Part shown: positions 2,847 to 56,084 of the stretch, one piece after another | Position numbering within the stretch: position 1 is the first letter of the stretch | Layout of the letters: the number at the start of each line of letters is the position of its first letter | Source of the DNA: an uncultured Alphaproteobacteria bacterium | GTDB taxonomy: Bacteria; Pseudomonadota; Alphaproteobacteria; RF32; CAG-239 | Length of the DNA stretch: 64,000 nt | Assembly (NCBI GenBank): GCA_934271715.1 | Contig: CAKQRZ010000001.1 | Location: 18,819 to 82,818 of the forward strand | Direction: 5' to 3' | Position numbers and translations under genes: made by a program | The notes under the pieces: model-generated | What the model was told of the DNA's origin: nothing | The model's database searches: none | Seen by the model: the letters and a program-made list of their open reading frames with translations, nothing else

Positions 2847-3441
2847 TTTTATCTCTTAACGCATTTAAAAAATCTTCGTCCATGGTAAATACATCGTCAT
2901 GCAAGCCTTTTGTTTTAGATTTTTCTAAAGTATCAGGGTTTAGTAAAAAGTCTTTTTCATCCATTAAAAAACGATTTCCATCAACACCCAATTTTTTCTC
3001 AAATTTTTTCCATTCTGGGTAATCATGTGAAATATCACTCAAATCAAATTGGCAGAACTTTCCAAAATTTGAAATAGAAAAATCCAAAGCTTCTTTAAAA
3101 CTTTCTGAAAGTTCATCATCACTTTGTGGTTTAATATAAACAGAATATTCATCAAGACTTTCAACGTCTTTTAATAAATTTGCATCCGAAACTGCTGCAC
3201 ACTCAGGCAATTTATTATTCATAATGTCTTTAGCAGCAGAGGCAACAGGTCCGTTTTTCATTGCGTAATAAGAATCATCAGAAGCTAAGCATCCATAATG
3301 CCGCATATGATAACGATCTGCAAAGAATAAAATTTTTAAAAAATACATAACAGTTTGCTTGCTGTTGTTTGTAGCAGGAGCATGGTTTTGAATATAAAAA
3401 AGCGCTTGCAAAATTTTGCGCATAGAAATTGTATAAGACAT
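2839..3441 (-). CDS. Panacea-domain (DUF4065, SocA-like) antitoxin-like protein
   Basis: The N-terminus KILQALFYIQNHAPATNNSKQTVMYFLKILFFADRYHMRHYGCLASDDSYYAMKNGPVASAAKDIM resembles the DUF4065/Panacea signature (KLQKLLYYAQ...GPV). The C-terminus is acidic. Confidence 0.5.
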   Translation of the reverse strand: MSYTISMRKILQALFYIQNHAPATNNSKQTVMYFLKILFFADRYHMRHYGCLASDDSYYAMKNGPVASAAKDIMNNKLPECAAVSDANLLKDVESLDEYSVYIKPQSDDELSESFKEALDFSISNFGKFCQFDLSDISHDYPEWKKFEKKLGVDGNRFLMDEKDFLLNPDTLEKSKTKGLHDDVFTMDEDFLNALRDKID

Positions 3442-3522: not shown

Positions 3523-4308
3523 TTATTCCATTTCTACAGTAACTGAGCAGCTTTCGGTTGCGCCTGTGCATTTTTTGCAAACTTCATTGATTTGCTGAGG
3601 GGTAATGCTTGTTAAACACTGTTTATTAGAATCCTTGCAATATTTGTCGCCATACCAATAATTTGCGGAGTCATTATTACCTTTGCCGGAGCGCCATACA
3701 CCGGTAAATCTGATAAAGCTGTGCAATGGCGTAAAAACATTAGCCATGATTTCTTCGCAGAATTTTGAAGAAAATGCCGGAGTTGTGGCAGCTCCGTCTG
3801 CGTCATAGTTTGCACCGCCTATTTCTATGCTGAATACAACTCTGTTCCAGCGGGAAAATAAAGCGCTGTTGTTGCCGTAAGCATCTAAAAAAGATGTGTT
3901 GTGATATGCGGCGGCGTTTTGTTCTATAGGCCAATTATCAGGGACTAAGCCTAAGGCTTGTATGGTATCAGCTATGCCGTATACATCGCCTCCGGAATTT
4001 AGTTTTTTAAAGTCTGAAAGATGTTCTACTAACCCCTGCACAAGCTGGTTATATTCTCCGACTGCCTTGGTTAGCTTAAATTTTTCCATGGCTTTGGAAT
4101 AACCTGCGATTCCGCCGACTGATAATACGCCGATAATCGCCAGAACGCCGAGCATTTCTATCATACTCCGCCCGGATTGAGAATAAGCACTTACTCTGCG
4201 TCCCCGGCACCAGTCATTCTTGGGTTTATCCCAAGAATCTTCTCTCAACCAACACTTATGCAATAATAAGGCTAATTTATTGACTAGGTTAGGGACTCGC
4301 TGCAACAA
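3523..4308 (-). CDS. Type IV pilin-like protein with an A-module 5' region. The pilin frame is open upstream to 4506, and the ATG at 4515-4517 is 2 nt out of frame.
   Basis: Mature N-terminus ...SQSG|RSMIEMLGVLAIIGVLSVGGIAGYSKAMEKFK. The C-terminal Cys-rich tail is CKKCTGATESCSVTVEME. The annotated start at 4308 is a TTG artefact of the ORF track. Confidence 0.75.
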   Translation of the reverse strand: MLQRVPNLVNKLALLLHKCWLREDSWDKPKNDWCRGRRVSAYSQSGRSMIEMLGVLAIIGVLSVGGIAGYSKAMEKFKLTKAVGEYNQLVQGLVEHLSDFKKLNSGGDVYGIADTIQALGLVPDNWPIEQNAAAYHNTSFLDAYGNNSALFSRWNRVVFSIEIGGANYDADGAATTPAFSSKFCEEIMANVFTPLHSFIRFTGVWRSGKGNNDSANYWYGDKYCKDSNKQCLTSITPQQINEVCKKCTGATESCSVTVEME

Positions 4309-4480
4309 GATTCTAGGTACAAGACCTAGAATGACTGGTGCTTGAGGCGCTAGCTTAGTGCCGTCTGTTATTTTAGTTTTTACTGTATTATTTCCGAAAG
4401 TGTTATTTTTTCTACCAAACCCTGCAAAAATGTGCTGAACAGCAGAAAAAGTGCCTTTAATCAGATGTTTAGGGTTTGCA

Positions 4481-8124: not shown

Positions 8125-8201
8125 GCAGGCGTAGCTCATCAGGATAGAGCGACTTCCTCCTAAGAAGTAGGCAGGCGGTTCGAGTCCGCCCGCTTGTACC
8201 A
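8125..8201 (+). tRNA. tRNA-Arg (anticodon CCT)
   Basis: Cloverleaf: D-stem GCTC/GAGC, anticodon stem ACTTC/GAAGT with loop ctCCTaa, T-arm GGCGG-TTCGAGT-CCGCC, and a 3' ACCA. The acceptor stem has two G-U pairs. Confidence 0.75.
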
Positions 8202-8365
8202 TTTAGCTTTTCCGCCCTTTCATTTAGTTGAGTTGTATATATTACCATACCATGGTTACCATGCAGTGGCTTTTTCCATTAAGGCATTTTTTATAAGCTT
8301 CATCAATTTCCGTCAATGTCATATTTATAAAATATGCAAAATCAAAGCATAGGAAAAGCCGGAAA

Positions 8366-8541
8366 TGTGTAAAAAAAACGACCGTTTAAAAGGGACAGTT
8401 TTTAGGCTGTTTTTAGTAATGTATCACGGTTTGCTGCAAAATGCAATAACATAATAATTTTGCGTTATTTTTTTCATAATTTTGCAACATTTCAGCAGCT
8501 TGTTTTGAGTGTGTAAAAATAACGGTCGTTTTTTTTACACA
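8366..8541 (+). repeat. B-module element bounded by 21-bp perfect inverted repeats (tgtgtaaaaaaaacgaccgtt ... aacggtcgttttttttacaca), copy 1
   Basis: Inverted repeats at 8366-8386 and 8521-8541. It is followed by taataggaggaataagATG and the conserved 18 codons. Similar copies lie at 26687-26862 and 55125-55300; the inverted repeats are identical in all three, while the internal segment diverges. Confidence 0.8.
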
Positions 8542-8557
8542 TAATAGGAGGAATAAG

Positions 8558-10195
8558 ATGTTGAAGAGTATGAATTTTTTAAGAGGAAAGAGCAGGGAAA
8601 GAGTAAGTGGAGGCGGCACTTCCGTTTGCAGCGTCATTCTTCGCCGGTACTCCCAGCTGGAAGTACCATGGCGGAGAATCCATAACGTCATTGCGCATGC
8701 AATGTCAGTATGCGTTGCCGTTGGCAACAAAGTCATGGATACTCGTCTGCCACAGCCTGCGGGGTGTGGCGACAAGTATGACGTTTCGGGTCGGTGCCGG
8801 GGACGAGGGGTTAGTGCATTTAGCACCTTTACTATTAAAGCAATGTCAATATTAGCATTTCTTTGCTTATTCGCAACCGCGGCGGAGGCGAAGATTTGCT
8901 TTTTGCCGGACGGCAGCTGCGGCACTAGTAAAACAACCGGATTTAAGCAGAATCCAAACGGAAGCGGATGTATGTATAAATCGGAAGCTGAAGCCCGAAA
9001 CGGCTTAGGCGCCTGCGAAACCACATATAAGCAAAACATGTGCTATTATCGGCGCTGCAAGACTGAAGACAATAATATATTTGCAGACGAGGCAAGCTGC
9101 AAAAAGAAAGCCAAAGCAGATAATTTAATCTGCGTAAGCTGCGGCGGCTGCTATAAAGTTACGCCGAAAACATGCCCGAGTGGGTACACGGCAGGCTTAA
9201 CCGCCTGCGCAGAAAAAGCAGGCTATACGGCAAGTTATTCAAGCAACGGCTATGTAGGATATAGCGTCTGCGGCAAGTGCAAATATACCATAAAATCATG
9301 TGAAAGCGGCTATACTGTGGGCTTGGCCAGCTGTCCGGAAAAACAAGGTTATACTTCTAACTATTCCAGAAACGGAGTTTCCGGCGAGCAGGTCTGCGGC
9401 AAGTGCGACTACACGGCAAAGAGCTGTGCCGGAGGTTATACAGCGGGTCTGACAAGCTGCAGCGAGCGCCAAGGCTACACAGCAAGTTTAGTCAGCAATG
9501 GCTATGCCGGGGAGTTGGCTTGCGGAAAATGCAGTTATACGGCAAAAAGCTGTGCCGGAGGTTATACAGCAGGTCTGACAAGCTGCAGCGAACGGCGCGG
9601 CTATAATGCAAGCTATGCCAGCAACGGGTATGCCGGTGAGAAAATTTGCGGAAAATGCGACTATACGGCAAGAACTTGCCCAGATGGATATTCTACAAGA
9701 TATAGCAGCGTCAGCGCCTGCGGAAAAACAGGAAGTAACGGCTGGAATTATTATACTAATGGCTATTCAGGGGAAGCTGTGTGCGGGCAATGTAAAAGTA
9801 AAGCCTGTCCTAATGGGTATACTTGTACGTATTCTAGTAATATCAAGGCTCCTTGTAATAAAAGTATGGGATGTCCAGGCGATAGTGGGTATTATATTTA
9901 TGGTGGTATATTGGAACTAGGCTGGAGTAATGGATGTTTTGAGCGAGGGTATTATGTATATGTTATCTCTAATCGTTGCGGAGACGGGGTATGTGTCAGC
10001 AAATATGCAGCACGCACATGTCCTAGTGGTACAATGTTAAGAGATAGTGTAGATAATATTTATATATATTGCCAAAATAAAAATGCTACATCTTTTTGGG
10101 ATAAATATAATTGGTCGGCAAGGGCTGCAAAAGATGCAAACGGAGATACAGTTTGTTCAGGTTCAGAAATATGTATGGAATGCTATAAAAAATAA
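8558..10195 (+). CDS. Cys-rich tandem-repeat secreted protein with a B-module N-terminal extension. The signal-peptide-like MSILAFLCLFATAAEA starts at 8822.
   Basis: The ATG at 8558 (RBS aggagg) reads the conserved MLKSMNFLRGKSRERVSGGG and runs in frame, with no stop, into a signal peptide and five roughly 42-aa repeats of the form K.C..GYTAGLTSC.E..GYTAS..SNGYAGE..CGKC.YTA. At DNA level the repeats have a 126-bp period (9416-9541 and 9542-9667 are near-identical). Confidence 0.6.
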   Translation: MLKSMNFLRGKSRERVSGGGTSVCSVILRRYSQLEVPWRRIHNVIAHAMSVCVAVGNKVMDTRLPQPAGCGDKYDVSGRCRGRGVSAFSTFTIKAMSILAFLCLFATAAEAKICFLPDGSCGTSKTTGFKQNPNGSGCMYKSEAEARNGLGACETTYKQNMCYYRRCKTEDNNIFADEASCKKKAKADNLICVSCGGCYKVTPKTCPSGYTAGLTACAEKAGYTASYSSNGYVGYSVCGKCKYTIKSCESGYTVGLASCPEKQGYTSNYSRNGVSGEQVCGKCDYTAKSCAGGYTAGLTSCSERQGYTASLVSNGYAGELACGKCSYTAKSCAGGYTAGLTSCSERRGYNASYASNGYAGEKICGKCDYTARTCPDGYSTRYSSVSACGKTGSNGWNYYTNGYSGEAVCGQCKSKACPNGYTCTYSSNIKAPCNKSMGCPGDSGYYIYGGILELGWSNGCFERGYYVYVISNRCGDGVCVSKYAARTCPSGTMLRDSVDNIYIYCQNKNATSFWDKYNWSARAAKDANGDTVCSGSEICMECYKK

Positions 10196-25610: not shown

Positions 25611-26339
25611 TTAAAATGTCAATACAACGGCACAGGCATCATCTTTAGCACATCCGGAACAATATTTGTTTATATCAGATAAAGATAATTGATTAAAACA
25701 TTTTTTATCGGCACCGTTGCAATAACTATCCCCATAAAAAGCGACAGCTATAGGAAATATCAAAACATATTTTAAGGATGAGTGTAAAGGAGTTGCTATA
25801 TTTTGCACAAACTTTTCACATAAGCTATGAGAAAAATTTGCAGATACAGATTTTCCATCCTCATTTGTTACCCAGCCGCCTAGGTACATATCAAATACTA
25901 AGTCATTGCTGCGAAGGTAAATATTGAAATAATTGCCTAAATTGTCGTGTAAATATGGCCATTCAGGCGGAAGCAGATTTATATTTCTAAAAAATTCATT
26001 AAAATGTGTGCCATTTTTTTGTTTTTTTATGTATTGCAGGTGTTCTGTTATGCCAAAAAGTATATGAGAATAACCATCAATAGCTTTATTGATTTTGTAT
26101 TGCTCCATAGCTTTGGAATATCCGGCAATCCCGCCCACGCTCAACACGCCGATAATGGCCAGCACGCCAAGCATTTCTATCATACTGCGGCCGGATTGAG
26201 AAAAAGTACCATACCTGCGTCCCCAGCACCCATCATTCTTTGGTTTATCCCAAGAATCTTGTGTGAACCAGCTTTTATTTAATAATAAGGCTAATTTGTT
26301 GACTAGGTTAGAGACTCGTTGCCACAAGATTCTAGGCAC
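25611..26339 (-). CDS. Type IV pilin-like protein with an A-module 5' region. The frame is open upstream to about 26576, and the ATG at 26585-26587 is out of frame.
   Basis: ...YGTFSQSG|RSMIEMLGVLAIIGVLSVGGIAGYSKAMEQYK. The C-terminal tail is CSGCAKDDACAVVLTF. Confidence 0.75.
   Translation of the reverse strand: MPRILWQRVSNLVNKLALLLNKSWFTQDSWDKPKNDGCWGRRYGTFSQSGRSMIEMLGVLAIIGVLSVGGIAGYSKAMEQYKINKAIDGYSHILFGITEHLQYIKKQKNGTHFNEFFRNINLLPPEWPYLHDNLGNYFNIYLRSNDLVFDMYLGGWVTNEDGKSVSANFSHSLCEKFVQNIATPLHSSLKYVLIFPIAVAFYGDSYCNGADKKCFNQLSLSDINKYCSGCAKDDACAVVLTF
26164..26291. repeat. 128-bp inverted repeat, left arm. It is 127/128 identical to 27023-27150 in inverse orientation.
   Basis: The reverse complement of 26164-26291 equals 27023-27150 except for one C/T difference. 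The arm covers the pilin leader/N-terminus coding region of both divergent genes. Confidence 0.9.
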
Positions 26340-26550
26340 AAGGCCTAGAATGACAGGTACTAGAGGCGCAGACTTAGTGTTGGTTAATAGATTGCTTCGC
26401 TTTGCTCGCAGTGACGGCAGAGCAAGAGGCGAGCCTGTTAGTTTTGTTCTTAATGCGTTATTACCGAAAGTATCATTTTTTCTGCCAAATCCTGTAAAAA
26501 CGTGCTGAACGGCAGAAAAAGCGCCTTTAATCAGATGTTCAGGATTTGCA

Positions 26551-26564
26551 GAGAGAGAGAGAGA
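26551..26564. repeat. (GA)7/(CT)7 tract of the A-module
   Basis: Direct reading. The ATG frame reads MKNKQSKGLSLSLQILNI*. Confidence 0.9.
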
Positions 26565-26624
26565 CCTTTGGATTGCTTATTTTTCATCTTTCTTTCCTCT
26601 ATATTTAAGTTATTTTATACCTTT

Positions 26625-26654: not shown

Positions 26655-26686
26655 CCGTAAAATCAAAGCATTGGAAGAATCGGAAG

Positions 26687-26862
26687 TGTGTAAAAAAAAC
26701 GACCGTTTAAAATGGACAGTTTTTAGGCTGTTTTTAGTAATGTAGCAGAGGTTGTTAAAATTTGCAATAACTTTTTATATTTGCGATGTTTTTTGCGGTT
26801 TTATAAAAATTTACAGCGTCTTGTTTTGAGTGTGTAAAAATAACGGTCGTTTTTTTTACACA
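26687..26862 (+). repeat. B-module IR-bounded element, copy 2
   Basis: Inverted repeats at 26687-26707 and 26842-26862, followed by taataggaggaataagATG at 26879. Confidence 0.8.
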
Positions 26863-26878
26863 TAATAGGAGGAATAAG

Positions 26879-27760
26879 ATGTTTAAGAGTATAGAATTTT
26901 TAAGAGGAAAGAGCAGGGGGAGAGTAGGTGGATGCGGTGGACTCTCGCCTCTAGCACCAGTCATTCTAGGTCTTGTACATAGAATCCTATTGCAACAAAT
27001 CTCTAACCCAGTCAATAAATTTGCCTTATTATTAAATAAAAGCTGGTTCACACAAGATTCTTGGGATAAACCAAAGAATGATGGGTGTTGGGGACGCAGG
27101 TATGGTACTTTTTCTCAATCCGGCCGCAGTATGATAGAAATGCTTGGCGTATTAGCTATAGTAGCTGTTCTCTCAGTCGGCGGGATTGCTGGATATTCCA
27201 AAGCTATGGAAAAGTGGAAAGAAAATAAAGTCATCGGCGAATACAGTTACTTAATACAGGGAATTATAGAGCATTTGAGCGACTTTGAAAAACTGAAAGA
27301 CGAGGAAGTCCGCTATGATTTATTGCCGACCTTAGCGGCAATGAATTTGCTCCCCGGCAACTGGAAAAATACAGACGAATATGAAGGGCATAAAAATGTA
27401 TCAGATACCTTAGGCAATACTTTGTCTGTTTTCAGCCGCAGCGACAGAGTGGTTATGACTATATTGTTTGGCGCTAGTTCGGTTTCCGAAAGCGGAGATA
27501 CCGTTTCGCAAACTTTTTCCGGACAATTATGCAAAGCATTTTGGCAAAATATTTTAGTTCCCTTACATAATCAAATTTATTATGCAGGAGTTTATCGCAG
27601 TAAATATTATGAGCGTGCAAATTATTATTTTAATGATAAATATTGCGGCGGCAAAAATCAATGCTTCAGTGAAATCAAATTGAATGATATAGAAAGAATA
27701 TGCAGCGCCTGCGCTTCCGGGGAAGAATATTGCGTGCTTACTTGGGAGTTTGATTATTAG
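26879..27760 (+). CDS. Type IV pilin-like protein with a B-module N-terminal extension, in frame
   Basis: MFKSIEFLRGKSRGRVGG...(81 aa)...SQSG|RSMIEMLGVLAIVAVLSVGGIAGYSKAMEKWK. The C-terminal tail is CSACASGEEYCVLTWEFDY. Confidence 0.75.
   Translation: MFKSIEFLRGKSRGRVGGCGGLSPLAPVILGLVHRILLQQISNPVNKFALLLNKSWFTQDSWDKPKNDGCWGRRYGTFSQSGRSMIEMLGVLAIVAVLSVGGIAGYSKAMEKWKENKVIGEYSYLIQGIIEHLSDFEKLKDEEVRYDLLPTLAAMNLLPGNWKNTDEYEGHKNVSDTLGNTLSVFSRSDRVVMTILFGASSVSESGDTVSQTFSGQLCKAFWQNILVPLHNQIYYAGVYRSKYYERANYYFNDKYCGGKNQCFSEIKLNDIERICSACASGEEYCVLTWEFDY
27023..27150. repeat. 128-bp inverted repeat, right arm
   Basis: See 26164-26291. Confidence 0.9.
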
Positions 27761-36468: not shown

Positions 36469-37422
36469 ATGGCAACAGTAAATGATACAGAATTTTCGGA
36501 TATTTATATTATTCCGGATGGCACGGCCTACATTTGGGGGCGTCAGACACCAAGCGGATTGATTCAGGTTCAACCGGATGATTATGATGAATTTTTGCAA
36601 CAAGTTATGAATACATATGACGGTCATAATCCAAGTTATCAAGTAAAATTTAAAGGTTTGAACTACCGTGTTGAAAGAACCGTAACGCTGGAAGGACAGC
36701 AATACTGCGCCCGTAAAATGCCTCACTCTGTGCCGGATATTAACAAACTTGGTATAGAAGAACATTTGCTCAAATACTTAAAATCACTAAGCGGCGCTCC
36801 CGGACTTATTTTGCTTGCCGGTACAACCGGTTCCGGTAAAACCACCACTCTATCAGCTTTGCTGCGTGAATTTTTGATTCGCGACGGCGGCTATGCTTTT
36901 ACGCTGGAAGACCCGGTGGAAATGCCGCTGGACGGCACTTATCATACGGTAAACGGCGAGCTTGGCATTTGCAAACAGATGACGCCTCCGGGAGGTTCTT
37001 GGGAAGCCGGTCTGAAATCAATGCTGCGTTCTAAGCCGCGTTATGTATATCTGGGTGAGATTCGTGACCCTGAAATTGCCTCTGAAGCTTTGCGTGCAGC
37101 TATTTCAGGCCACCTTGTTATGTCCACAATTCACGCCAGCACCGTTACTGATGCTATTCAGTCTATTGTAAAATACGCCGCGGCAACCGGTATTTCCGAA
37201 GAAATGGCCTATGACTTGGTGGGCAACGGTATTTTGGCGGTGCTGCACCAAAGCTTGGTCGGCGTTCCTAAGCGCGCTAAAATTGAATATGTGTTTGCTA
37301 ATCCGGACGGCTCTAAAGGCGACCAAGTGCGCGGTATTATCAAAAGCGGCAAGATGAACTTGTCTACCACGATTGAAACTCAGCGCATTCGTTTGTCACG
37401 CGGCGTGCCGTTGTTTGAATAA
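36469..37422 (+). CDS. PilT/PilU-family secretion ATPase (type IV pilus retraction ATPase-like), short form
   Basis: Walker A GTTGSGKTTT, Asp box TLEDPVE, Walker B YVYLGEIRD and His box HLVMSTIHA. At 317 aa it is shorter than canonical PilT. Confidence 0.65.
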   Translation: MATVNDTEFSDIYIIPDGTAYIWGRQTPSGLIQVQPDDYDEFLQQVMNTYDGHNPSYQVKFKGLNYRVERTVTLEGQQYCARKMPHSVPDINKLGIEEHLLKYLKSLSGAPGLILLAGTTGSGKTTTLSALLREFLIRDGGYAFTLEDPVEMPLDGTYHTVNGELGICKQMTPPGGSWEAGLKSMLRSKPRYVYLGEIRDPEIASEALRAAISGHLVMSTIHASTVTDAIQSIVKYAAATGISEEMAYDLVGNGILAVLHQSLVGVPKRAKIEYVFANPDGSKGDQVRGIIKSGKMNLSTTIETQRIRLSRGVPLFE

Positions 37423-54177: not shown

Positions 54178-54804
54178 TCATACATTATTATCAAAAAGGA
54201 TTTGAATTAAACAGTAATCGTCTTTGCAGATTTTACAAGCTTCGCTGACTTCCGGCAAATTATAATCTTCTCTTACGCATTCAGCAACAGCATAATCTGC
54301 CGGTCTGGCATTTCCGCAGATTCTATAATCCCAACTGCTGCATGTTCCGCTGCACAATACTATAGTCCAAATAATATCAGTATAAACCGGCAATAAATGG
54401 AATAATTCGCGGCAGTTATATTCGGCTATACTGTTTGGCAATATTTCAAATTGTAAATTTAAACGAGTGTAAATATCATAAGGTTTCATAGTAACAGATA
54501 CTCTGTTTCTAAACAAATCTCTGTTATCATCATCTAACAAGCCTTGAGGCACAATGCCGATTTCTTTTAAGGTGGGCAGAATGTCTTCACTGCGTTTTCC
54601 ATATTGTTTTTCTAATTTATATGTATCTTTGATGTTAAAAATCAGCTCTTCTACTTGCTGAATCCATTTATCTTGCTTCCACTTCTCCATAACCTTGGAA
54701 TAACCGGCGATTCCACCTACTGATAATATACCAACAATCGCCAGAACTCCGAGCATTTCAATCATGCTTCTCCCTAAGAAATTTGCGCTTCTAGCACTCG
54801 TCAT
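54178..54804 (-). CDS. Type IV pilin-like protein with an A-module 5' region. The frame is open upstream to about 55014, and an in-frame ATG gives the short leader MTSARSANFLG.
   Basis: MTSARSANFLG|RSMIEMLGVLAIVGILSVGGIAGYSKVMEKWK. The C-terminal tail is CKICKDDYCLIQILFDNNV. Confidence 0.75.
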   Translation of the reverse strand: MTSARSANFLGRSMIEMLGVLAIVGILSVGGIAGYSKVMEKWKQDKWIQQVEELIFNIKDTYKLEKQYGKRSEDILPTLKEIGIVPQGLLDDDNRDLFRNRVSVTMKPYDIYTRLNLQFEILPNSIAEYNCRELFHLLPVYTDIIWTIVLCSGTCSSWDYRICGNARPADYAVAECVREDYNLPEVSEACKICKDDYCLIQILFDNNV

Positions 54805-54988
54805 ACTAGGCCCTGTGCCTAGTATCTTGTGGCACCAAGGGCGGTGTAATCCATCGCCCCGTGAGGGAGAGGTTATTATTTTTGTTCTTAATGCGTTATT
54901 TCCGAAAGTATCATTTTTTCTGCCAAACCCTGCAAAAACGTGCTGAACAGCAGAAAAAGTGCCTTTAATCAGATGTTCAGGATTTGCA

Positions 54989-55002
54989 GAGAGAGAGAGA
55001 GA
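54989..55002. repeat. (GA)7/(CT)7 tract of an A-module
   Basis: Direct reading. Confidence 0.9.
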
Positions 55003-55092: not shown

Positions 55093-55124
55093 CCGTAAAA
55101 TCAAAGCGTTGGAAGAGGCGGAAG

Positions 55125-55300
55125 TGTGTAAAAAAAACGACCGTTTAAAAGGGACAGTTTTTAGGCTGTTTTTAGTAATGTAACAGAGGTTGCTAAAATT
55201 TGCAATAACTTTTTATATTTGCGATGTTTTTTGCAGATTTGTGAGACTTTTCAGCGTCTTGTTTATAGTGTGTAAAAATAACGGTCGTTTTTTTTACACA
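55125..55300 (+). repeat. B-module IR-bounded element, copy 3
   Basis: Inverted repeats at 55125-55145 and 55280-55300. An internal putative promoter TTGCTA-N18-TATATT lies at 55209-55238. Confidence 0.8.
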
Positions 55301-55316
55301 TAATAGGAGGAATAAG

Positions 55317-56084
55317 ATGTTGAAGAGTATAGAATTTTTAAGAGGAAAGAGCAGGGGAAGAGTAGGTGGATTGCTTCGCTGCACTCGCAATGACGGTGCA
55401 GGTAACGGCGAGGGATTGCACCGCCCTGGGTGCGACAAGATCCTAGGCACAGACTGTGCGTCACGGCCTAGGATGACTGGTGGCAGAGGCGCAAATTACT
55501 TTGGCCGCAGTATGATAGAAATGCTGGGAGTTCTCGCAATTATCGGAGTGCTGAGTGTCGGCGGAATTGCCGGATATTCTAAAGCTATGATGATGTGGAA
55601 AGTTGATAAATGGAGTGCCGGGTTAATTCAAATGATGCAGGAAGCGCAAACTCTGTATTTGAATCAAAAATCATTCGGCGATACTGTGAAAATTATCACT
55701 CCTCAGCTGGTAGATACCGGAGTTATTCCGCAGGGAATGCTGGATGAAAATTACCGCGATATGTTCGGCAATCGGCTTACTGTTTTAACTCGTTATTGGG
55801 ATGTGTTTGGACTTCGCCTGAATGTTTATCATGAAATGCCTGCCGGTAAAGACGCGGTGGAATGCTGTAAAAAGCTATATGAGATGGGACAGCAGTTTCC
55901 CAGCAACTGGGTAGTAGTAACTGAAAATTTCGGCTATTCAGTCTGCGGCAGAGCGGCGCCGGATAGTTATGTGCAGGCGATGGGCTGTCAGCCTTATAGT
56001 TTAGCTAAGGTCGCAGAACTGTGCAAAAATTGCGAAACCAATAACTGCAATATAATATTTTTATTGGATAATACTAAATATTAA
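55317..56084 (+). CDS. Type IV pilin-like protein with a B-module N-terminal extension
   Basis: MLKSIEFLRGKSRGRVGG...RPRMTGGRGANYFG|RSMIEMLGVLAIIGVLSVGGIAGYSKAMMMWK. The C-terminal tail is CKNCETNNCNIIFLLDNTKY. Confidence 0.75.
   Translation: MLKSIEFLRGKSRGRVGGLLRCTRNDGAGNGEGLHRPGCDKILGTDCASRPRMTGGRGANYFGRSMIEMLGVLAIIGVLSVGGIAGYSKAMMMWKVDKWSAGLIQMMQEAQTLYLNQKSFGDTVKIITPQLVDTGVIPQGMLDENYRDMFGNRLTVLTRYWDVFGLRLNVYHEMPAGKDAVECCKKLYEMGQQFPSNWVVVTENFGYSVCGRAAPDSYVQAMGCQPYSLAKVAELCKNCETNNCNIIFLLDNTKY

Follow-up and report, generated by a model that had tools for sequence, protein, structure and literature searches.

Probable Mpi/fin-like invertible promoters, present in many copies before type IVb-like pilin and other surface-protein genes of uncultured gut Alphaproteobacteria

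We analyzed a 64,000-nucleotide stretch of DNA (here called the window) from an uncultured Alphaproteobacteria bacterium (assembly GCA_934271715.1, contig CAKQRZ010000001.1) which carries three copies of a short, repeat-bounded element, the B-module, each immediately followed by the start of a protein-coding gene. The B-module belongs to a set of dozens of nearly identical promoter switches, probably flippable, which precede genes for pilus subunits and other surface proteins. We consider it likely that these elements constitute a multicopy family of invertible promoters resembling the Mpi-controlled (fin) promoters of Bacteroides fragilis, and that they control type IVb-like pilin paralogues together with other surface proteins. 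An invertible promoter of the Bacteroides type was among the possibilities raised when the window was originally described from its sequence, and it is the best fit to the hix-like, opposed cores of the repeats, the inversion of sibling elements at orthologous loci, and the presence of Mpi-family invertases in the same clade.

All three B-modules are 176 bp long, with a 134-bp interior between perfect 21-bp arms. The exact 21-mer TGTGTAAAAAAAACGACCGTT was found in the window on the plus strand at positions 8366, 26687, and 55125 and on the minus strand at 8521, 26842, and 55280; with the inner half-sites counted too (up to 3 mismatches), the window has 9 matches against 0.02 expected by shuffling. 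The arms are 100% identical among the copies and the interiors show pairwise identities of 78%, 81%, and 91%, bearing out the original prediction of perfect inverted repeats around diverging interiors. Also as predicted, each copy is followed by a ribosome-binding site (RBS), an ATG, and a conserved peptide. The sequence TAATAGGAGGAATAAG-ATG stands directly after each B-module, and the first 18 codons match at 47 to 52 of 54 nt, compared with only 35 to 45 matching in the next 150 nt.

Each end of the element reads TGTGTAAAAAAAACG-AC-CGTTTTTTTTACACA, that is, paired inverted 15-bp half-sites flanking a nonpalindromic dinucleotide. One end has AC as its central dinucleotide, the partner end GT; this opposed polarity, seen in 89 of 90 family elements, counts in favor of inversion because inversion sites require it and operators do not. 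Judging by sequence, the layout of the ends is that of serine-invertase sites, as in hix, and the core ACG-NN-CGT is presumably similar to the Mpi repeat consensus. The sites also permit an alternative reading, as those of a tyrosine recombinase with the 8-bp spacer ACGACCGT. Among the 90 elements, the arm pairs are identical in 76 and differ at no more than one position in 87, and the length is 176 bp in 68 and 173 to 177 bp in 86. Column conservation is 0.99 for the arms and 0.835 for the interior, figures in which one arm per locus was fixed by the 21-mer search and the other was free. Inverted repeats flanking a short segment, the arrangement that characterizes an inverton, are thus present in the three window copies and in the 76 relatives with perfect arms. 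The “symmetric” members of the family have four perfect half-sites, two per end; among the window's pilin-type elements, the inner half-site of the right site (8510 to 8524 in copy 1) has one mismatch.

Scanning species-representative genomes for the 21-mer identified at least 80 loci, almost all in metagenome-assembled genomes (MAGs) of human-gut Alphaproteobacteria, mostly labelled “uncultured Alphaproteobacteria” and derived from Hadza and Nepali samples. One MAG alone, CAKQDU, accounts for at least 29 loci among the matches listed, and a second scan, of metagenome contigs, yielded 49 further loci. The element, with an identical 21-mer throughout, is therefore not confined to the three sites at which it was first recognized, and what emerges is a set of many dispersed sites with one repeat consensus, as in the regulon of an Mpi-type global invertase. 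The remaining loci are in a few bins with evidently wrong names and the same sequences: the MAGs CAVKTH, CAVEOB, CAVGVF, and CAVIDY are named Bacteroidaceae, [Ruminococcus] gnavus, or Eubacteriales (loci L001, L005, L006, L008, L017, L028, and others), labels that look wrong because these MAGs carry alphaproteobacterial elements and pilin genes. The pilins of the window itself also occur on Hadza gut metagenome contigs, and a related recombinase cluster bears a name in the alphaproteobacterial genus Candidatus Scatocola.

Orientation was compared among all elements with both flanks homologous, using consensus assemblies, in which only the majority orientation is visible. The flanks of the orthologous loci L008 and L067, from different MAGs, show 98.5% and 95.2% identity, and between them lies an interior of 95.5% identity in reversed orientation. 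The same applies to the orthologous loci L017 and L077, also from different MAGs, where flanks of 88.8% and 87.0% identity enclose an interior that is 89% identical but inverted. Paralogues within a MAG likewise differ in orientation (L031 versus L056 and L062). All of these elements carry the same 21-bp repeats, as do those of L006 (3348 to 3534) and L034 (1675 to 1861). The latter two lie between two divergent, RBS-bearing genes for Cys-rich (CFLPD) proteins of ~720 to 780 aa and contain a single strong promoter, TTGAAA-N17-TATACT, so as to form apparent two-gene toggles. The near-palindromic repeat sites also coincide with many contig ends in these MAGs, a point of practical relevance; such breaks were rejected as evidence of inversion because repeat copy number and near-palindromy explain them equally well.

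A potential enzyme is encoded in the same clade. Within ~0.97 Mb of related loci, small serine recombinases were found only in L073, at distances of 1.7 kb and 6.4 kb from its copy 1 homologue. The product of rec2, sited 1.7 kb from that homologue in a sister strain, scores 275.8 bits against the NCBIfam model NF009949, “master DNA invertase Mpi family serine-type recombinase” (cutoff 272). Homologues of rec2 with 80 to 97% identity are common in Alphaproteobacteria MAGs, some sharing NCBI's Mpi name and some situated in ordinary chromosomal contexts. No tyrosine recombinase gene was detected beside the elements, tblastn searches of the ~0.97 Mb with FimB and XerC giving one XerC-like gene only (L095).

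As to the outward promoter of an inverton, the interior offers two consensus-level candidates on opposite strands, both with position-specific conservation. The plus-strand candidate is that of the original prediction, TTGCTA-N18-TATATT pointing at the cargo; it is exact in copy 3, present as a TTGTTA variant in copy 2, and weaker in copy 1, and its role as the promoter that faces the cargo is doubtful. It has 9/12 consensus matches in copies 2 and 3 and no TG, was not called in copy 1 by a simple scan, and its -35 is absent from other element types. The minus-strand candidate, TTGCAA-N17-TGn-TAnAnT, is preceded by an A/T-rich UP-like block and, in copy 1, is directed toward the left arm, away from the cargo. 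It scores 8/12 against the consensus, with TG in 26 of 31 copies, and across 61 distinct pilin-type elements TG, T-12, A-11, and T-7 are invariant while noncritical positions vary. No other good promoter occurs in the symmetric and two-gene types of element, where this one has the same position. Consensus score was discarded as a guide to promoter direction, 9/12 without TG versus 8/12 with TG not being decisive. The pattern of conservation inclines us somewhat to the view that the minus-strand promoter is ancestral and probably the main one. Because this family-conserved promoter points away from the cargo in the shared orientation, the three window copies and all other pilin-type copies would, on a modest balance of likelihood, be in a majority OFF orientation, the usual picture for a large phase-variable family. 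Somewhat less likely alternatives are that all copies are ON or that the switch has two promoters.

The genes behind copies 2 and 3 encode pilins. As originally described, the reading frame continues from the repeat-proximal ATG through extensions of 81 and 62 aa, the prepilin motif G|RSMIEMLG beginning at residues 82 and 63, respectively. This family of pilins has 6,943 database proteins at E ≤ 1e-5, mostly without annotation, a few of which match the Pfam families PilS, Bundlin, and N_methyl. An AlphaFold2 model of the mature copy 3 pilin (predicted local distance difference test score, 85.8) has a long N-terminal helix and an alpha-beta head and was matched to TcpA and CofA. With its class III signal, G at -1, E at +5, and the TcpA/CofA-like alpha-beta head of the model, the cargo has the predicted features of a type IVb-like pilin.

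Gene callers disagree on the start of the pilin (200 aa versus 255 aa). In 80 of 81 distinct pilin-type copies, no stop codon interrupts the frame from the repeat-proximal ATG to GRSMIEMLG, the leaders being 26 to 203 aa long, and conservation is 0.83 at codon position 3 versus 0.91 at positions 1 and 2. Because the frame is open in 80/81 and third codon positions are less conserved, we take the conserved peptide to be a real leader N-terminus: the RBS, the ATG, and M(F/L)K(S/G)IEF(L/F)(R/K)GKSRG are, on this sequence evidence, the true N-terminal end of an unusually long prepilin leader, and the possibility that the 18-aa frame might be closed in orthologs can be set aside. These features are located outside the putative invertible segment. 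The original notion of a portable promoter/RBS/start-codon cassette has to be corrected in this respect, as the RBS, ATG, and peptide belong to the pilin leader. Other cargo classes (Cys-rich CFLPD/CFLP proteins and a membrane protein) share the repeat-bounded promoter but have their own signal peptide 16 to 39 nt past the repeat.

Copy 1 departs from this division. Its frame does lead into a signal peptide and a Cys-rich protein, as first noted, although the signal peptide, MSILAFLCLFATAAEA, starts at residue 96, later than the 86 codons given. From residue 92 the cargo is 70% identical to a protein of L032 which starts directly with the signal peptide, 16 nt past the repeat. Copy 1 thus appears from its sequence to be a chimera, in which a pilin-type leader is joined in frame to an L032-type gene. 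The middle parts of the leaders consist of recurring modules (LLRRYTPRND, GLHRPWCHKILG..RMTGG, and VAFGNKVMDTRLPQP.GCGDKYDVS) which at the DNA level are imperfect palindromes. In the window, 55- to 57-nt imperfect palindromes (72 to 73% complementary) lie at 26215 to 26371 and 4187 to 4361, within translated pilin leader regions; the palindromes in pilin leaders encode recurring peptide modules and recall the in-frame palindromic elements (RPEs) of Rickettsia.

Several observations nevertheless weigh against active inversion of the pilin-type copies. None of the ~95 examined is flipped in the consensus assemblies, where minority orientations are invisible: the ~40 genome copies and the 49 metagenome copies are all in one orientation, as are the 5 contigs bearing the window's own pilins, so that the inverted state which the original prediction proposed to look for was encountered in sibling elements at orthologous loci and in no pilin-type copy. 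A pattern specific to the junction predicted after a flip gave 0 matches among metagenome contigs, compared with 49 loci, in one orientation, for an orientation-neutral control pattern. At the RBS-side junctions, 97 face the same interior end and 1 faces the other, the latter before a nonpilin gene (L004). Pilin-type elements have a degenerate left inner half-site, reduced to TGT...AAACG. No recombinase gene was found in the 64-kb window by tblastn with Hin, gamma-delta resolvase, FimB, and XerC or by Pfam searches of ~40 open reading frames (ORFs), leaving the suggestion of a nearby invertase or tyrosine recombinase without support there. In sister strains, rec1 and rec2 reside on a ~9.7-kb island (with an integrase and a duplicated tRNA-Arg 3′ end) that is absent at the window site; its insertion point falls precisely between tRNA-Arg and the putative inverton of copy 1, and the window represents the empty site. 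No repeat was found near Mpi-like or rec1-like genes in the retrieved contexts other than L073, and because of this adjacency gives no link between enzyme and site. Finally, the plus-strand promoter candidate is itself constrained over the 61 copies (T1, A2, and T6 of the -10 invariant; TTG kept in 51 to 58), and for that reason the ON/OFF state is not assignable with confidence.

Much of this would be expected of a fixed, noninverting promoter cassette, in which the 32-bp near-palindromes serve as operators for a dimeric regulator, possibly looping 155 bp, or which derives from locked inverton relics. The single orientation of ~95 out of ~95 pilin-type copies, the degenerate left half-site, and the absence of a recombinase gene from the window all agree with it, as does the near-perfect palindrome at each site, which is common in operators. 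We nonetheless regard it as unlikely. Orthologous loci with the same 21-bp repeats carry inverted elements, the opposed asymmetric dinucleotide of 89/90 elements is not needed by an operator, and Mpi-family invertases are present in the clade; as for decaying relics, the arms stay perfect while interiors and flanks diverge by 10 to 20%. The uniform orientation of the pilin-type copies is in turn compatible with rare switching, because consensus assemblies report the majority orientation only.

A role at the RNA level, with the repeats forming a long-range stem or local hairpins in the 5′ untranslated region that attenuate or stabilize the pilin mRNA, seems very improbable. The right site can fold into an AU-rich ~10-bp hairpin just upstream of the Shine-Dalgarno (SD) sequence, and there is a weak stem with a T-run, GGACAG...CTGTTTTT, at the left end of the interior. 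However, both arms would be in one transcript only if transcription started outside the element, a terminator scan around the three copies was empty, and the DNA inversions at orthologous loci and the opposed core polarity would be left unexplained. Rfam recognized no family except tRNAs, either in the whole window at gathering thresholds or at 8300 to 8900 at permissive settings, which also argues against a riboswitch or a known leader RNA.

The original prediction had further suggested a miniature inverted-repeat transposable element (MITE), a nonautonomous element which would carry the promoter and spread by transposition. The B-module does resemble MITEs in being short (176 bp), bounded by terminal inverted repeats, noncoding, and present in dozens of copies per genome. 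In contrast to MITEs, it lacks target-site duplications (none in 73 of 87 elements, the other 14 sharing only 1 to 2 nt, at chance level) and keeps a fixed register with the cargo, whose start codon follows the repeat at exactly 16 nt in all 81 pilin copies. The conserved flanks on both sides, moreover, are sequences of paralogous gene families, and no empty/filled site pairs were seen. The missing duplications, the fixed register, and the paralogous flanks together led us to discard the MITE interpretation, to which we assign a very small probability. The element appears instead to have spread along with its gene families.

Inversion of the three window copies, the direction of their promoter, and the recombinase responsible are what we infer from these data. 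In the proposed mechanism, a small serine invertase, most plausibly the clade's Mpi-family enzyme, presumably from a gene at another place in the genome, would cleave the central dinucleotides and thereby invert the 134-bp interior, which would carry an outward-facing sigma-70-type promoter. The strong SD sequence and the start codon 16 nt past the right arm would then open a modular prepilin leader of 26 to 203 aa, with translation continuing as far as the cleavage motif, G|RSMIEMLG, of a type IVb-like pilin. Flipping would thereby switch dozens of pilin and surface-protein genes ON or OFF independently, resulting in combinatorial surface variation.

An accessory protein may also be involved. 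Of 64 distinct pilin-type elements, 23 (copies 2 and 3 among them) have an exact match to the integration host factor (IHF) consensus, WATCAANNNNTTR, 26 nt beyond the left arm, and 4 more have it at -25 or -23, compared with 0.2 in shuffles. Because the copies are paralogous, this enrichment is a lead and not a statistic.

The closest parallel is the fin system. In B. fragilis, Mpi inverts 13 dispersed regions, 7 of which are polysaccharide promoters (PMC4747536; PMC3090145), and FinA drives polysaccharide promoters (PMC3090145). Both fin and the B-module family comprise many dispersed promoter segments of ~150 to 200 bp with one shared inverted-repeat family, and both concern surface structures of a gut commensal. 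Global control in fin is exerted by one small serine recombinase (Mpi/FinA) encoded away from most sites, and the B-module clade has a recombinase that passes NF009949. Unlike fin, the B-module has an alphaproteobacterial rather than a Bacteroidota host, with SD-dependent translation and sigma-70-type hexamers; it precedes genes for type IVb-like pilin paralogues and for Cys-rich secreted proteins in place of capsule operons; and it is much more abundant per genome (one MAG has at least 29 loci), with a fixed repeat-to-start distance of 16 nt. The analogy with Mpi is thus a well-motivated proposal.

Salmonella Hin/hix, and Gin, Cin, and Pin, share with the B-module inverted half-sites of 12 to 15 bp, a 2-bp asymmetric core, and inverted sites flanking a promoter. 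Hin inverts ~1 kb containing its own gene and a Fis-bound enhancer, whereas the B-module segment is 134 bp long and gene free, with no enhancer identified and dozens of sites. Escherichia coli fimS is similar as a short invertible promoter immediately upstream of a pilus-subunit gene, and IHF is its accessory bending protein, the counterpart here being the candidate motif at -26. It differs in having adjacent tyrosine recombinases, FimB and FimE, none being adjacent to the B-module, as well as 9-bp repeats and a single locus. The R64 shufflon (Rci) and Moraxella Piv systems also vary type IV(b) pilus proteins by site-specific DNA inversion, but they invert coding segments and swap pilin C-termini, in contrast to a promoter flip in which each complete pilin gene has its own switch.

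Invertible promoters, a recognized means of surface variation in gut bacteria, are characteristic of gut Bacteroidota, in which they shape colonization, phage resistance, and immune interaction. If the proposed reading is correct, a dense family of identical-site invertons, probably acted on by an Mpi-type enzyme, would extend this strategy to a different phylum, in an uncultured lineage known only from MAGs, and would place type IVb-like pili, not capsules, under such a switch. Because the 21-mer is identical throughout, ON/OFF states of this organism could readily be profiled at the read level in Hadza, Nepali, and other available gut metagenomes.

More tentatively, the elements may belong to a three-part surface-variation system of a small-genome uncultured gut alphaproteobacterium, a picture that we consider doubtful when all its parts are taken jointly. 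In such a system, variation of the type IVb-like pili would draw on at least 30 Mpi-type invertons and, where pilin genes are divergently paired, on (CT)n slipped-strand switches as well. Two overlapping back-to-back promoters would cause a flip to exchange promoter strength or partner gene instead of acting as a mere ON/OFF switch; leaders of up to ~200 aa would be built from in-frame palindromic modules similar to repetitive extragenic palindromic (REP) elements or RPEs, tolerated since they are cleaved off; and a master invertase on the tRNA-Arg island would let strains gain or lose switching.

Table 1. Positions in the window of the B-modules, their recombination-site, promoter, and IHF-motif candidates, and the genes that follow them
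Feature	Coordinates	Strand	Details
B-module copy 1, putative inverton, 176 bp	8366..8541		Arms 8366-8386 and 8521-8541
Copy 1, left 32-bp site	8366-8397		Core AC, 8381-8382
Copy 1, right 32-bp site	8510-8541		Core GT, 8525-8526
B-module copy 2, putative inverton, 176 bp	26687..26862		Arms 26687-26707 and 26842-26862
B-module copy 3, putative inverton, 176 bp	55125..55300		Arms 55125-55145 and 55280-55300
Copy 1, SD and leader start	8547..8611	+	SD GGAGG 8547-8551; start codon 8558 (16 nt past repeat); 18-codon leader start MLKSMNFLRGKSRERVSG
Copy 1, cargo ORF	8558..10195	+	Pilin-type leader of ~95 aa fused in frame to signal peptide and Cys-rich CFLPD repeat protein
Copy 2, cargo, type IVb-like prepilin	26879..27760	+	Leader 81 aa; predicted cleavage G|RSMIEMLG from 27122; SD 26868-26872
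Copy 3, cargo, type IVb-like prepilin	55317..56084	+	Leader 62 aa; mature part from 55503
Copy 1, family-conserved promoter candidate	8418..8446	-	TTGCAT (8446-8441), 17-nt spacer, TG (8426-8425), TACATT (8423-8418)
Copy 2, family-conserved promoter candidate	26739..26767	-	TTGCAA (26767-26762), 17-nt spacer, TG (26747-26746), TACATT (26744-26739)
Copy 3, family-conserved promoter candidate	55177..55205	-	TTGCAA (55205-55200), 17-nt spacer including TG, TACATT (55182-55177)
Copy 1, originally predicted promoter candidate	8431..8460	+	TTGCTG-N18-TAATTT, toward cargo; weaker than in copies 2 and 3
Copy 2, originally predicted promoter candidate	26752..26781	+	TTGTTA-N18-TATATT
Copy 3, originally predicted promoter candidate	55190..55219	+	TTGCTA-N18-TATATT
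Copy 1, IHF-like motif	8340-8352		One mismatch
Copy 2, IHF-consensus-like candidate	26661..26673	+	AATCAAAGCATTG, 26 nt outside left arm
Copy 3, IHF-consensus-like candidate, same motif as in copy 2	55099-55111		

The 64 kb contain eight GRSMIEMLG paralogues, at 200(+), 4173(-), 26192(-), 27122(+), 38803(-), 45701(-), 54774(-), and 55503(+), only two of which sit behind B-modules. The ORF at 179 to 778 encodes a GRSMIEMLG pilin with a short leader, MNTANEN|GRSMIEMLG. Five further pilin genes have a different 5′ module, with a promoter TTGACT-N18-TAGAAT, a start MKNK..KG, and a (CT)7 tract that leaves the downstream pilin frame a single repeat unit out; in related loci the unit count is 7 or 8. 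These genes are the ORFs at 25611 to 26339(-) and 54178 to 54804(-), which adjoin B-modules 2 and 3 divergently, and others at about 38803(-), 4173(-), and 45701(-). On the plus strand, the tract reads (AG)7 at 26550 to 26563 and 54988 to 55001, with minus-strand ATGs at 26587 and 55025. From their sequence, the five genes are candidates for phase variation by slipped-strand mispairing.

Pilin genes divergent from B-modules were also found in L007 (about 2950 to 3330, minus strand), L053, and L123, with short leaders (MYKNFEKGRSMIEML). Upstream they have a ~330-nt untranslated leader which ends in a strong intrinsic terminator and is riboswitch- or attenuator-like; Rfam gave only a weak, sub-threshold match to sRNA-Xcc1 (27.9 bits versus 53). 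The same arrangement, truncated, forms the left flank of copy 1. Between the tRNA-Arg and copy 1, at 8242 to 8322 on the minus strand, is a 26-codon remnant of a pilin C-terminus, MTLTEIDEAYKKCLNGKSHCMVTMVW*, which suggests a past deletion or rearrangement at the copy 1 locus.

In L004, the element at 1470 to 1645 is the only asymmetric one whose “A” end faces an RBS-bearing gene, here for a multi-pass membrane protein of 404 aa. The inverted repeat of this element is longer, at 37 bp, hence the RBS sequence CTTACGGAGGAACAAT is duplicated on both sides.

The tRNA-Arg(CCT) integration site of the island lies at 8125 to 8234 in the window and at 3246 to 3293 and 12957 to 13024 in L134; it is also found in L135, L136, and L073. 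In addition to the integrase and the two small serine recombinases (one of the Mpi family), the island encodes a radical SAM/SPASM protein and a DUF3800 protein. Loci L154 and L155 have a block with a 525-aa large serine recombinase on opposite sides of an Mpi-like gene, a difference which suggests another rearrangement system. Elsewhere in the window, the ORF at 36469 to 37422 (plus strand) encodes a homologue of the PilT/PilU-like type IV pilus ATPases (TIGR01420, 113 bits, short of the cutoff of 319), in keeping with the presence of pilus machinery genes in this genome.

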